In this document: positions 1,933 to 5,858 of the stretch, piece by piece | How the letters are laid out: each line of letters starts with the position of its first letter | Position numbering within the stretch: position 1 is the stretch's first letter | Virus record (IMG/VR): IMGVR_UViG_2693429700_000016 | Direction: 5' to 3' (one strand) | Length of the DNA stretch: 6,193 bases | From: a virus | Lineage: Duplodnaviria; Heunggongvirae; Uroviricota; Caudoviricetes | The notes under the pieces: model-generated | Seen by the model: the letters and a program-made list of their open reading frames with translations, nothing else | The model's database searches: none | Told to the model about the DNA's origin: nothing | Position numbers and translations under genes: made by a program

Positions 1933-1940
1933 AATAATAA

Positions 1941-1959
1941 AAGGCGGTAGTACCGCCTT
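1941..1959. terminator. Perfect hairpin (AAGGCGGTA / TACCGCCTT) between convergent Q and cassette; likely intrinsic terminator for the minus-strand cassette
   Basis: Inverted repeat 1941-1949 / 1951-1959. On the minus strand it is followed by a U-rich tract (revcomp of 1929-1940 = TTTTATTATTTT). The plus-strand downstream tract is not U-rich. Overlaps the stop codon (1958-1960) of the last cassette gene. Confidence 0.55.
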
Positions 1960-2572
1960 AATGATCGAATCGTTGTATGTTTTCATGGAATCTACAAAAG
2001 TGAATAGATATTTTGAATAGTAAAATGTAGAAACCAACTTGACTTAAAGTTATGGCTTTGCATTTATCATTCAAGAGTTTTTGTAATTCTTCCGTTGGTA
2101 ATTGGTATACATCATCAAGAAAAACGATGCATTCTTCTAAGTTGTCTGATTCAGGAAGATAAAAAATATTAGTAATTAACTGCTTCCTTATAGCATCAAT
2201 TTTGCTATCTATTGAAGTCTTAGAAACTCCGTTGGAGAGAAGAATAGCTTCGAACTTAGATAAACTTACTAACGGAGCAAAGACTGCACGCATTGGCACA
2301 TCACGATTATTACTTGTATCTATATCGCAACTGTTGCTTAATATAATTCCTCGTGTTTTTTTAGTCCCTTTAATTGAATATACTGTAAGCTCCTTAAATA
2401 TATCTCCCTGAAGTGCAGCATTTTTCAGATCATCATGATAATTGGTAAGGTAGTAGTTAGTGTTTTCAGGGAAATCTCTAAGTGCATTTATTAGCCCTTC
2501 TTTTTGAGGAGCTGTTAAATAATATGGGATTTGATCTTTGAATTTCTCGATATCAAAAATGTTATTACTCAT
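1958..2572 (-). CDS. Cassette gene C: hypothetical protein (~204 aa), no recognisable motif
   Basis: Long ORF in strongly AT-rich DNA. ATG at 2572-2570 (alternative GTG at 2575-2573) lies directly after the TAA stop (2578-2576) of gene B, suggesting translational coupling. Ends at the terminator hairpin. Confidence 0.7.
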   Translation of the reverse strand: MSNNIFDIEKFKDQIPYYLTAPQKEGLINALRDFPENTNYYLTNYHDDLKNAALQGDIFKELTVYSIKGTKKTRGIILSNSCDIDTSNNRDVPMRAVFAPLVSLSKFEAILLSNGVSKTSIDSKIDAIRKQLITNIFYLPESDNLEECIVFLDDVYQLPTEELQKLLNDKCKAITLSQVGFYILLFKISIHFCRFHENIQRFDH

Positions 2573-2575
2573 CAC

Positions 2576-2920
2576 TTAATCCAAGTATAAATCCCACAGT
2601 GAAGCATGAACGACTTTATTTATTTCACTGCCTAAAGACACCTGGTTTGTTGATAATTTTTCATAAAAGTTTGTCATCGAGACTGCAAGTCTTTGATCAA
2701 CTGAGATTGTGCTCCCTGCTTTATATGTTTGTGTGATGGAATGAACTGAATCGGTAGTTGAAGACTTATACTCCAAAGCGTGATTTTTGACGATTAAACT
2801 TTGTTGAGGACCATGCTGTTGATTTTGGGCAATGTCTGTTAATGCTGTTATATGCAGACCATATAAAACCAAAGTTAATACTTGAAGTTGAGCTCGATAA
2901 ACATGATGAGACGGATACAT
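2576..2920 (-). CDS. Cassette gene B: small hypothetical protein (114 aa) with hydrophobic N-proximal segment
   Basis: ATG at 2920-2918 preceded on the minus strand by GGTGGT about 7 nt upstream (revcomp of 2921-2935 = AAATGGTGGTATGAT). Residues ~10-30 (AQLQVLTLVLYGLHITALTDIA) are hydrophobic. Stop abuts the start of gene C. Confidence 0.6.
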   Translation of the reverse strand: MYPSHHVYRAQLQVLTLVLYGLHITALTDIAQNQQHGPQQSLIVKNHALEYKSSTTDSVHSITQTYKAGSTISVDQRLAVSMTNFYEKLSTNQVSLGSEINKVVHASLWDLYLD

Positions 2921-2935
2921 ATCATACCACCATTT

Positions 2936-3685
2936 CTATTTGTAGGATGGTTCTAGTTCTTGAATTGTTGACTCTTTAAGGCAACTAAAGAAAGCTAATT
3001 TATTACAGGAGTGAAGATCATCAAGAATTTTTTTGGGTTCGTTTTTAAACTTATCTATTTCATCAGTATTAGTGATTTGCCTAATACTGTCTATGTCTAG
3101 GATTAGTCCTTTTTTATTAAATTCTCCATTATCTGACATGACTAAAGCATGAGATAATATTTGAATTATATTTAGAAATGCGCCTTCATTTTTATCGATT
3201 CTGATATTGATCGGATAATTAGACATAGACTCGCCAGCCATATTTAAGCTGACGTTTAGCTTATCAAATAAATTAGAATCGTCTTCTTTTGGGAAAAAAT
3301 CTACATACTTTAATGAGTAGCGGATGATGTTGTCATTTAAATTTAATTTGTTAAGCTCATTTAATACATGAATGATTTTTTCTCTAAAATGACTCCACCC
3401 TTGATATTTGGTGCTGGTGGATACAACAACACCATGGTCACTTAGTCCAATATAGTACCCTTCGATTTCGAGGCGACTGACAACTGCGTAATGTAATTGT
3501 TCATCTCCCTCACGAACATTTTTAGGTATTTGACTGGGTGGTAAACTAATTACTGGTTTTGTACAACCTAGAGCGTGAAAAAGAAACCCTGGAACTATTT
3601 CCGATATTTGTGTTTCTTTAGAAAAACGCATTTCGAAAGCAGCTTCGATTACTGGTTGTTTTGATAGAGATGTTGGAATGAGCAT
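2936..3685 (-). CDS. Cassette gene A: hypothetical protein (249 aa); N-terminal P-V-I-E-A-A-F-E-M-R-F motif resembles TIGR04255-type proteins of unknown function (recognition from memory, unverified)
   Basis: 750-nt ORF, AT-rich codon usage, ATG at 3685-3683, stop TAG 2938-2936 is 15 nt upstream of gene B start. The motif PVIEAAFEMRF plus later IIRYSLKYVDFF and GLILDIDSI blocks fit my memory of that family. Confidence 0.7.
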   Translation of the reverse strand: MLIPTSLSKQPVIEAAFEMRFSKETQISEIVPGFLFHALGCTKPVISLPPSQIPKNVREGDEQLHYAVVSRLEIEGYYIGLSDHGVVVSTSTKYQGWSHFREKIIHVLNELNKLNLNDNIIRYSLKYVDFFPKEDDSNLFDKLNVSLNMAGESMSNYPINIRIDKNEGAFLNIIQILSHALVMSDNGEFNKKGLILDIDSIRQITNTDEIDKFKNEPKKILDDLHSCNKLAFFSCLKESTIQELEPSYK

Positions 3686-3912
3686 TTAAAACCCATAGTA
3701 TGTTTTATGAGCTGATTGGATTTTGAGCATAGCTACCGCACGAATCTTCGAGGAAGATCCAAACATGTGCCTAATGTCGCATCATGCTCAAGGCGGCATA
3801 AATTTTGTTTACTGAGTATAAGATTAACAACCATTAACTTCCATCAAAAATGCTAACGCGTACGCAAAAACTATTGTATCGTGTTAAGAGTGGTCACTTC
3901 GCCACACAGCTT
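3686..3912. promoter_or_regulatory. Divergent control region: expected site of the cassette promoter (minus) and possibly the phage late promoter/qut (plus); exact elements not resolved
   Basis: Non-coding, compositionally intermediate stretch between the cassette start and the lysis leader. Only weak sigma70-like hexamers found by eye, e.g. TTAACA 3824-3829 with AAAAAT 3846-3851. Positional inference only. Confidence 0.3.
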
Positions 3913-3942
3913 AAACCCGCCGTCGAGCGGGTTTGTCGTTTC
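3913..3942 (+). terminator. Hairpin AAACCCGC-CGTCGA-GCGGGTTT followed by GTCGTTTCT: candidate tR'-like intrinsic terminator or late-leader structure upstream of S
   Basis: 8-bp GC-rich stem (3913-3920 / 3927-3934) with 6-nt loop and U-rich tail on the plus strand. Flanking GGTCACTTCG (3892-3901) recalls the lambda pR'-tR' leader from memory. Confidence 0.4.
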
Positions 3943-4085
3943 TGGACCCGGCTATTTGTTGAGCCTGGTCTATACCGCAGTTATCCATTGGCTCGGCCTC
4001 TTTTACGTTTCCGCTTCTGATTTGCGGTACATGATGTTCCCTCAATTTGCACCTCCTGTATTGGCGAGGTGAGAGATAACTACAA

Positions 4086-4412
4086 ATGCCTCATAACCCA
4101 AATACCTGGCTGGAGTTGGTCCAGAGCTGGTGGCGTGGAGACACACCGCTGGGCGCAGTGATTATGTCGATTGTTATGGCTGGTTTACGTATTGCCTATT
4201 TTGGCGGTGGTGGCGGCTGGAAGCGAAAAACACTCGAAATTCTACTCTGTGGTGCTCTGACGCTGACTTTTGCATCCGCTCTTGAGTATGTCGGATGGCC
4301 TAAATCACTATCTGTTGCCATTGGTGGTGGGGTGGGGCTGATCGGTGTCGATGCTATTCGTGGGGCTGCAATGCGAGTAATCGGTAACAAATTTGGTGGC
4401 TCTAAGGAGTAA
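4086..4412 (+). CDS. S: Holin (class I, lambda S-like three-TMD architecture, but a divergent allele)
   Basis: 108 aa. Three hydrophobic segments (about residues 22-39, 49-69, 75-91). Shares the LR..Y.GG...K and IG.D.I pattern with lambda S from memory. Immediately upstream of R; stop TAA 4410-4412. Confidence 0.8.
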   Translation: MPHNPNTWLELVQSWWRGDTPLGAVIMSIVMAGLRIAYFGGGGGWKRKTLEILLCGALTLTFASALEYVGWPKSLSVAIGGGVGLIGVDAIRGAAMRVIGNKFGGSKE

Positions 4413-4415
4413 TTT

Positions 4416-4892
4416 ATGCAGGTACTAAATTCCCAGCGTAAAGCTTTCCTCGATATGGTGGCTTGGTCAGAAGGAACGGATAACGGACGACAACCGACAC
4501 GTAACCACGGTTATGACGTTATTGTTGGTGGTGAACTCTTCACTGATTACTCCGATCACCCTCGCAAACTTGTCACGCTAAACCCGAAACTCAAGTCAAC
4601 AGCCGCCGGACGTTACCAGCTTCTTTCACGCTGGTGGGATGCTTACCGTAAACAGCTTGGCCTGAAAGATTTTTCTCCAGAAAGCCAGGACGCTGTAGCT
4701 CTGCAGCAGATTAAAGAGTGTGGCGCTTTACCGATGATTGATCGCGGTGATATTCGTCAGGCAATTGACCGTTGCAGCAATATCTGGGCTTCACTGCCGG
4801 GTGCTGGTTATGGTCAGTTCGAGCATAAGGCTGACAGCCTGATTGCAAAATTCAAAGAAGCAGGCGGAACGGTCAGAGAGATTGAGGTATGA
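4416..4892 (+). CDS. R: Endolysin R (lambda-type lytic transglycosylase)
   Basis: 158 aa. Sequence [81 protein letters not shown]... is near-identical to lambda R as I remember it. AAGGAG at 4404-4409. Confidence 0.95.
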
Positions 4893-5350
4893 GCAGAGTA
4901 ACCGCGATTATCTCCGCTCTGGTTATCTGCATCATCGTCTGCCTGTCATGGGCTGTTAATCATTACCGCGATAACGCCATTACCTACAAAGCCCAGCGCG
5001 ACAAAAATGCCAGAGAACTGAAGCTGGCGAACTCGACAATTACTGACATGCAGGTGCGCCAGCGTGATGTTGCTGCGCTCGATGCAAAATACACGAAGGA
5101 GTTAGCTGATGCGAAAGCTGAAAATGATGCTCTGCGTGATGATGTTGCCGCTGGTCGTCGTCGGTTGCACATCAAAGCAGTCTGTCAGTCAGTGCGTGAA
5201 GCCACCACCGCCTCCGGCGTGGATAATGCAGCCTCCCCCCGACTGGCAGACACCGCTGAACGGGATTATTTCACCCTCAGAGAGAGGCTGATCACTATGC
5301 AAAAACAACTGGAAGGAACCCAGAAGTATATTAATGAGCAGTGCAGATAG
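4889..5350 (+). CDS. Rz: Spanin inner-membrane subunit Rz (i-spanin)
   Basis: 153 aa. ATGA start/stop overlap with R. N-terminal TM segment ([16 protein letters not shown]) then coiled-coil-like region; near-identical to lambda Rz from memory. Confidence 0.95.
5109..5291 (+). CDS. Rz1: Spanin outer-membrane lipoprotein Rz1 (o-spanin), embedded in the +1 frame of Rz
   Basis: 60 aa. Lipobox VVGC and proline-rich [13 protein letters not shown]. Fully nested inside Rz as in lambda. Confidence 0.9.
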
Positions 5351-5381: not shown

Positions 5382-5675
5382 TTATTGTGAGCAATACACA
5401 CGCGCTTCCAGCGGAGTATAAATGCCTAAAGTAATAAAACCGAGCAATCCATTTACGAATGTTTGCTGGGTTTCTGTTTTAACAACATTTTCTGCGCCGC
5501 CACAAATTTTGGCTGCATCAACAGTTTTCTCCTGTCCAATTCCCGAAACGAAGAAATGATGGGTGATGGTTTCCTTTGGTGTTACTGCTGTCGGTTTGTT
5601 TCCAACAGTAAACGTCTGTTGAGCACATCCTGTAATAAGCATTGCCAGAGCGGCAGAAAACAACATTTTTTTCAT
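5382..5675 (-). CDS. bor: Bor-family outer-membrane lipoprotein (lambda bor-like)
   Basis: Minus-strand ORF; start chosen at internal ATG 5675-5673 (MKKMLFSAALAMLITGCAQQTFTV...) with AGGA about 8 nt upstream. Lipobox ITGC. Near-identical to lambda Bor from memory. The ORF-track N-terminal extension (5676-5723) is probably not translated. Confidence 0.9.
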   Translation of the reverse strand: MKKMLFSAALAMLITGCAQQTFTVGNKPTAVTPKETITHHFFVSGIGQEKTVDAAKICGGAENVVKTETQQTFVNGLLGFITLGIYTPLEARVYCSQ

Positions 5676-5858
5676 CTTATTATCCTGCATTGTTAAAAAC
5701 GGCAGAATCCTATGTGACAACAATTAAACGATAGTTAAATGGATTGATGAAATTTAAAACTATATAGGTGTACGGTCAGACTATTGGAGGTAGTCAGGAT
5801 TTGAATGTCAGTCTGTTGTCGGCATTCTGGCAATGCAATTTGGATAAAGCGGGGATTA

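Follow-up and report, generated by a model that had tools for sequence, protein, structure and literature searches.

A conserved three-gene module of temperate phages and bacterial chromosomes, and its last gene as a candidate toxin-like effector with a predicted MazF/Kid/CcdB-like fold

Gene C, the last gene of a three-gene operon in an E. coli lambdoid prophage remnant, is proposed here to encode the toxin-like effector of a mobile A-B-C module. Judging from a predicted structure and from the gene context, we put at roughly one in two the probability that C is expressed in the lysogen, held by B, triggered by A and ends in abortive infection or post-segregational killing. The core of the protein (about residues 55 to 175) is predicted to adopt the β-barrel fold of the MazF/Kid/CcdB toxins, a relation that is invisible to sequence methods. 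The picture of the A-B-C module is that of a self-contained mobile three-gene island, repeatedly carried by phages as lysogen-side cargo.

The window, that is the whole stretch of 6,193 nucleotides analysed here (IMG/VR record IMGVR_UViG_2693429700_000016), is a piece of this prophage remnant. On its plus strand we found a DUF968/HNH gene (574-1569; ORF list, Pfam and RefSeq context), a Q-family antiterminator gene (1573-1932; Pfam match), a lambda-type holin gene (4086-4412; Pfam match), a GH24 endolysin gene (4416-4892) and Rz (4889-5350), with Rz1 nested inside the latter at 5109-5291. An accessory island or "moron", to which as a whole no strand was assigned, occupies positions 1933-3900. 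It is an antisense insert between Q on one side and the putative pR'/tR' region and the holin gene on the other, and its GC content of 30-38% contrasts with 50-58% in the flanking phage genes. Foreign composition, an own terminator, variable presence and a site between conserved phage modules, the features by which a moron is recognised, were all found for it.

The island carries three tightly packed open reading frames on the minus strand. Gene A (2936-3685; 249 aa), a member of the TIGR04255 family, is the first gene of the operon, followed by gene B (2576-2920; 114 aa), identified from the ORF list and a match to PHROG 5728, and by gene C (1958-2572; 615 nt, 204 aa), which runs from an ATG at 2572-2570 to a TAA at 1960-1958. 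Only 3 nt separate the stop codon of B (TAA) from the ATG of C; an alternative GTG start of C lies one codon upstream, at 2575. The RefSeq coding sequence WP_001542079.1 is identical to the C reading frame. A terminator scan and RNA folding placed an intrinsic terminator of the operon on the minus strand at 1931-1959. Its hairpin has a stem of 8 bp, five of them G-C pairs, between 1959 and 1941, followed by a U-rich tract, UUAUUAUUUU, and folds with a dG of −11.7 kcal/mol (z = −3.65). The stop codon of C shares the first two bases of this stem, the other end of which (1941) lies 9 nt past the stop of the convergent Q gene. The non-coding region upstream of the operon on the minus strand (3686-3900) is where we presume the promoter to be, and a promoter scan of that strand of the region gave no strong sigma-70 match. 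The initial annotation, made from the sequence of the window, had described a gene for 204 residues at 1958-2572 with AT-rich codon usage that closes an operon and ends inside a terminator hairpin. All of this was borne out: the gene is on the minus strand and in RefSeq as the same coding sequence, GC content was 31-36% across 1950-3750 as against 50-58% in the flanks, C is the last of three co-oriented packed genes, and its stop overlaps the terminator stem.

Within E. coli the cassette was present in 92 of 5426 complete genomes, every copy being full length and at least 99% identical, and two alleles differ at 8 of 1728 nucleotides, six of these differences being synonymous. In both of the E. 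coli contexts that we inspected, ACN002 and WCHEC005784, the cassette lies antisense between Q and holin, and the same slot is used in enterobacterial viral contigs whose C protein is 64-65% identical. As an observation in its own right, the E. coli cassette shares its prophage remnant, which is bracketed by IS1203, with iss, a gene for serum survival; the strains concerned are avian and extraintestinal pathogens.

Beyond E. coli, the family of C is large yet unnamed. C matches PHROG 4575, labelled as of unknown function, with an E value of 1e-96, whereas the Pfam, NCBIfam and PADLOC models returned nothing for it at E ≤ 1. A word-indexed search of a database clustered at 90% yielded 469 homologs of about 200 residues each, all of them labelled "hypothetical". 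Members of the first set from Allochromatium, Trinickia, Candidatus Symbiobacter and Desulfobacterota retained about 45-50% identity. When 1.84 billion cluster representatives at 50% identity were searched exhaustively with HMMER, 986 clusters were recovered at E ≤ 1e-3, of which 399 also passed E ≤ 1e-30; nearly all were stand-alone proteins of about 200 residues. As far as sequence comparison goes, the 469 homologs, the 986 clusters and the mostly synonymous allele differences place the C reading frame far beyond chance. C had been called orphan-like at the outset. This description has to be given up in view of the 986 clusters, of PHROG 4575 and of the strictly conserved three-gene module to which C belongs. 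The accompanying remark that C lacks a Walker, HNH, PD-(D/E)xK or HEPN motif holds at the level of profiles, there being no Pfam, NCBIfam or PADLOC match at E ≤ 1, and no homology of C to a housekeeping or phage structural family, which had been named as refuting its role as an effector candidate, was found.

The three genes travel together. Scoring of open reading frames with HMMs showed that 84 of 85 genome loci contain A, B and C, co-oriented and in this succession; the lone exception is a contig of 1.7 kb that breaks off within the cassette. The loci fetched from species-representative genomes were 80 of the 121 loci with a relative. All 31 IMG/VR viral contigs had the trio as well, and in the phage database A and C occurred in exactly the same 4 records. 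The arrangement extends to distant relatives: a gene for 248-249 residues and then one for 112-118 residues come before C in Allochromatium, in Trinickia and in a Desulfobacterota MAG of magnetotactic type, and a divergent member of the module keeps the order with proteins of 243, 100 and 193 residues. A overlaps B by about 8 nt in relatives of the module, and B and C abut, overlap or lie a few nucleotides apart. Wherever a locus could be evaluated, B immediately preceded C, and in one alphaproteobacterial MAG the two are naturally fused in one uninterrupted frame. The module was intact in 74 of 81 non-redundant genome loci. Of the six decayed ones, five had damage in C, four in A and none in B, numbers that are too small for statistics.

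In Pseudomonas phage VW-6S and in 4 viral contigs the trio directly follows, in the same orientation, a gene for a CI-like S24 repressor, which is the place that rexAB has in lambda. The P2-like Pseudomonas phage Dobby has the trio abutting its portal gene, and this site resembles the hotspot of P2 phages that was shown to hold defence systems (PMC9122126). In these slots, as in that between Q and holin, the trio sits where lysogen-expressed protective genes sit in phages. These are strong contextual hints that the trio protects temperate phages or makes their hosts dependent on them. Elsewhere its neighbours comprised integrases, resolvases, filamentous-phage genes and genes for PemK/MazE, PIN and HipA proteins. 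The 201 flanking chromosomal reading frames were heterogeneous, many of them housekeeping, and about 10 of the 201 matched models of defence genes, namely type I, IIG and II restriction-modification, MADS, Mza and two PDC candidates. The association of the trio with defence islands is a modest one.

The company of the regulatory genes cI and Q could also be read as a sign that the trio has a task in the life of its own phage, be it the control of lysis and lysogeny, counter-defence or non-toxic exclusion, with a toxin fold re-used for regulation. We consider this highly improbable: most copies of the trio are chromosomal and have no recognisable phage neighbours, unrelated phage types carry the module at different positions, as cargo and not as core, and no more than the above-mentioned 92 of 5426 complete E. 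coli genomes have the cassette.

Another reading, rather unlikely in our estimation, is that of a pure addiction module which stabilises a prophage or other mobile element, C being the toxin, B a labile antitoxin and A an accessory protein, without any role in defence. The fold of Kid and CcdB is the classical fold of plasmid-addiction toxins, the module occurs in many non-defence chromosomal contexts beside integrases and resolvases, and the enrichment of defence genes around it is only modest, all of which would fit. However, it is defence genes that typically occupy places such as those after cI, between Q and holin or at the P2-like hotspot, and three components are unusual for a plain addiction module. 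This reading overlaps with the toxin-like effector reading preferred here since many toxin-antitoxin systems do both jobs.

The structure of C was predicted with AlphaFold2 from an alignment of 37 sequences (pLDDT 82.7, pTM 0.75). The core, approximately residues 50 to 180, was modelled mostly with pLDDT above 90, whereas the terminal segments, which are conserved, were of low confidence (pLDDT 51-72 for residues 1-40 and 49-60 for residues 191-204). When the model was examined for its fold, an SH3-like β-barrel core with a C-terminal helix was found, as in MazF and CcdB. Foldseek against predicted viral structures gave weak matches only, the second of which was a "PemK-like protein". To this barrel the model adds a helical region at the N-terminus, which contains the motif QIPYYLT, a helical insertion at about 104-135 and a long C-terminal helix (178-197).

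Conservation was evaluated on 148 divergent representatives with a median identity of 35% to the protein of the window. Eighteen residues were conserved in at least 95% of them, among them the polar set Q55, G56, D57, S79, N80, C82, D83, N88, Q131, K187, H191, R194 and R201; R90, S189 and E197 were conserved in at least 85%. The region of the C-terminal helix thus carries K187, S189, H191, R194, E197 and R201, and from helical periodicity K187, H191, R194, E197 and R201 would lie on one face of it. A zinc site formed by C82, H191, C193 and H196 was considered as well and dropped because C193 and H196 are not conserved in the family as a whole. According to the model, C is about twice the usual size of a protein of the MazF/CcdB fold and probably has an active or binding site of its own.

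The relation to the MazF/CcdB fold could not be recovered from sequence. Pfam gave no link of C to PemK or CcdB at E ≤ 1, and searches of PDB sequences with the C profile, with A, with B and with the A profile returned matches at chance level, MazF not being among them. Alignment of C by hhalign with small profiles of MazF, Kid, EndoA and PemK gave probabilities of 0.4% and 0.65%; only 3 PemK-like reading frames were available among the fetched loci to enrich the MazF-family profile. With permissive settings, a register was obtained that is not significant and yet fits the fold: ahead of strand 1, QGD of C pairs with RGD; the partners on strand 2 are GIILSNS and RPxLVxS, those on strand 3 are FAP and VxP, and the C-terminal helix aligns with its counterpart, residues 104-135 or so being an inserted helical hairpin. 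In this non-significant alignment the catalytic arginine of MazF falls on residue 74 of C, which is variable (K/R/T/L/Q/A), and the position of the threonine is not conserved either. An RNase activity of C is thus put forward by analogy only. We did not file C as a MazF protein, since its sequence profile and its type of antitoxin do not fit, although its fold does. From the model, C nevertheless probably works like a toxin of the MazF superfamily.

A toxin of this fold need not be a nuclease. C might act as CcdB does, binding to DNA gyrase or some other essential protein and so poisoning it. We regard this as very unlikely, given that C has no sequence similarity to CcdB, that a non-enzymatic binder has no need of a near-invariant set of Cys, His, Arg, Glu and Lys residues, and that most members of the MazF/CcdB fold are RNases. 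Nor does C combine membership of the CcdB sequence family with a CcdA partner.

The gene upstream of C supports the toxin-like effector reading. C is coupled in translation to a small acidic protein encoded upstream, an arrangement usual for toxins, and MazE and CcdA have acidic tails that bind their toxins. Among the Pfam, NCBIfam, PADLOC and PHROG families, B matches PHROG 5728 alone, with an E value of 3.8e-59, and the median pI of its family is 4.6. The N-terminal half of B is variable, and its last 45 or so residues are conserved across the family, with the acidic consensus F..LL..QEPLGAEFE..VL..NLWDLYES, which reads NQVSLGSEINKVVHASLWDLYLD in the window. By analogy, this acidic C-terminal tail resembles the toxin-binding tails of MazE and CcdA, and B is a putative antitoxin or adaptor that binds C. 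Pfam returned no match for B at E ≤ 1, hence no recognisable DNA-binding antitoxin domain; in this and in its variable N-terminal half B departs from the classical type II antitoxins. No transmembrane segment was predicted in A, B or C (maximal Kyte-Doolittle average over 19 residues below 1.5), and a role as membrane protein was set aside when the prediction for B turned out negative.

Gene A is the best-classified member of the trio. Its product is named as a TIGR04255 family protein in RefSeq and scored 96.2 bits on that model against a cutoff of 30, residues 7-244 aligning with positions 2-251 of the 252 of the profile. The AlphaFold2 model of A (pLDDT 94, pTM 0.90) showed an alpha+beta fold with no close solved relative, and this fold gives no clear function. 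E18, R20, R58, R122, K126, Y127 and N228 are invariant in A, and D197 and D199 nearly so. A is a putative sensor or regulator; that it might be an enzyme or a ligand-binding sensor is a lead only.

Catalysis could instead fall to A, acting for instance as an ATP-dependent kinase or an enzyme of ligase type, and the SH3-like barrel of C would then serve for binding, as an adaptor or for specificity. We hold this distribution of roles to be unlikely. C had initially been proposed as an "effector or specificity component", and the two halves of this proposal fared differently: the MazF/Kid/CcdB fold and the coupling to the small acidic protein B speak for the effector at the level of the fold, and nothing was found in support of a specificity component.

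For C as a toxin-like effector, the following sequence of events would be plausible. The operon would be transcribed in the lysogen from a promoter of its own or, in phages of the Pseudomonas type, from the cI promoter. The conserved acidic C-terminal segment of B would keep C inactive, as MazE and CcdA do with their toxins. A would sense or relay a trigger, for example the arrival of a second phage or the loss of the element. C, once freed, would arrest the cell, and the likeliest means is RNA cleavage at an active site unlike that of MazF. RNA cleavage is favoured here because nearly all MazF/ToxN-fold proteins carry it out, and as a step of its own it is a tentative proposal, made by analogy, with the odds somewhat against it. 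All this would end in abortive infection or post-segregational killing, to the benefit of the prophage.

A bolder version of this proposal may be considered, in which A-B-C is an unrecognised and widespread abortive-infection system, C a new catalytic variant of the MazF/CcdB fold and A a new infection sensor or modifying enzyme. We hold this to be possible, though short of an even chance. The catalytic site of C would then be rich in Cys, His, Arg and Glu, be assembled from the loop of strand 2 and the C-terminal helix, and replace the Arg and Thr of MazF.

Should the trio be a working immunity or addiction module, a function would be obtained for three unnamed families, TIGR04255 together with PHROG 5728, PHROG 4575 and PHROG 5464. 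These families amount to roughly a thousand clusters at 50% identity in Pseudomonadota, Desulfobacterota and some Bacteroidota. The few systems that temperate phages carry in the Q|lysis slot and in the one adjacent to cI would gain a further member. In E. coli, the cassette may under the same assumption help to retain the virulence block linked to iss.

The endoribonuclease toxins MazF, PemK and Kid (PF02452) have about 110 residues, whereas C has about 200 and does not belong to their family by sequence. C differs from them also by its N-terminal helical region, its helical insertion and its extended C-terminal helix, and by an invariant residue set of its own; the catalytic Arg and Thr do not appear to be conserved in it, going by the non-significant alignment. 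B, for its part, differs from the MazE and Kis antitoxins in that Pfam detected neither a MazE/AbrB nor an RHH domain in it at E ≤ 1, and the A-B-C module differs from MazF modules by an obligatory third gene, A. With CcdB of the CcdAB module of the F plasmid, C shares no sequence similarity; it is larger, has a conserved polar set that looks catalytic and belongs to a three-gene operon. In the type III systems of ToxN, CptN and AbiQ the antitoxin is a tandem-repeat RNA encoded upstream of the toxin, whereas here the upstream gene B encodes a conserved protein. A type III system was ruled out, there being no Rfam match and the sole tandem repeat being a 25-nt array with a score of 32 inside gene B. 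Toxin-antitoxin-chaperone (TAC) systems, finally, have as third gene a SecB-like chaperone, which the trio does not have.

Among defence systems, PADLOC-DB v2.0.0 contained no family that matched A, B or C at E ≤ 1; the 3HP models are presumably part of PADLOC v2. A literature search by family name, accessions and PHROG identifiers found no publication on the A-B-C trio. It is absent from the papers on Tai and on type II Gabija, and its accessions and its motif do not occur in the text of the DefensePredictor paper or in the parts of its supplements that were covered. Rst_3HP, found in the P2 hotspot of E. coli E1114, likewise consists of three genes for unannotated proteins in a phage hotspot (PMC9122126). 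It was ruled out: its proteins have about 333, 365 and 226 residues as compared with 249, 114 and 204 here, their sequences are unrelated, and the IPYYLT motif does not appear in the supplementary sequences of that work (PMC9122126).

With RexAB of lambda, one of the prophage defence cassettes expressed in lysogens, the trio of VW-6S and of the 4 viral contigs shares the co-oriented site downstream of cI. In E. coli the trio is an antisense low-GC moron in an accessory slot of the late region. There is no relation of sequence or fold between the two systems, and RexB is a membrane protein, whereas A, B and C are predicted to be devoid of transmembrane segments.

A precedent is offered by GajC of type II Gabija (Liu-DS1; PMC13069673). 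It is a split MazF-like protein into which a helical segment is inserted, and anti-phage defence in E. coli depends on it. GajC is the proposed nuclease effector of this validated E. coli defence system (PMC13069673). C, too, has a predicted MazF-like core with a helical insertion, the likeness being drawn from the description of GajC. The partners differ: GajC works with GajB, a UvrD-type helicase, while C is accompanied by a TIGR04255 protein and a protein of 114 residues. Type II Gabija itself was ruled out for the operon, which has no helicase gene and matched no PADLOC model of Gabija. If the trio does provide immunity or addiction, C would represent a second rebuilding, after GajC, of the MazF fold for defence.

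In one locus, L039 (7668-8615) from an uncultured alphaproteobacterial metagenome-assembled genome (MAG), a single uninterrupted reading frame of 315 amino acids spans both B, the small acidic putative antitoxin or adaptor, and C, the putative effector with a predicted MazF/CcdB fold. This frame may be either a natural fusion or the product of a lost stop codon. The presence of B and C in one frame argues for a physical partnership of the two proteins.

Several other loci were interrupted or damaged. A 1.8-kb insertion separates A, the TIGR04255 family member of the trio, from B in one of them (L079, 5851-7654), and A and/or C are frameshifted or truncated in six more (L013, L044, L080, L083, L084 and L085), B being intact in all six. 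Since these loci stem mostly from MAGs, assembly errors may contribute to the observed interruptions. Further copies of C were found on a 41-kb E. coli plasmid (CP085522.1, around 31207-31604), where the gene is degraded into two pieces (66% coverage, 56% identity), and at full length, with 33% identity, in a 15-kb record from Phocaeicola, a member of the Bacteroidota (OY726032.1, 9658-10245).

The trio is also carried by the Pseudomonas phages Dobby (L086, 1090-2786) and VW-6S (L087, 3939-5600), and it was mis-called in both deposited annotations. For Dobby, A was annotated from position 1483, whereas its reading frame actually starts at 1090; for VW-6S, A was shortened and B was labelled a 'XerC integrase' of 141 nt. 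In Table S3 of the DefensePredictor supplement (PMC13092281), 'TIGR04255 family protein' figures among the neighbour product names with positive values.

At the left edge of the window, the left IS1203 insertion has cut a KilA-N domain gene, whose 3' portion remains as a plus-strand reading frame of 143 amino acids (141-572). The match of other genomes to the window starts only at base 132, and in other genomes an uncut KilA-N gene of about 270 amino acids lies ahead of the DUF968 gene. The IS-bracketed block holds, together with the trio, a lipoprotein gene on the minus strand (5382-5723) that RefSeq annotates as iss, for increased serum survival, and that is homologous to bor. This gene is virulence-associated in avian and extraintestinal pathogenic E. 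coli.

Upstream of the holin gene, the plus strand carries a promoter-like site (3824-3851) and, after it, a hairpin rich in G+C that has a T-rich tail (3912-3950). These two elements probably constitute pR'/tR', the late promoter and its terminator, which are the target of the antiterminator Q. With this assignment, the trio would sit between Q and Q's target, and this slot is the place of the Shiga toxin genes in Stx phages.
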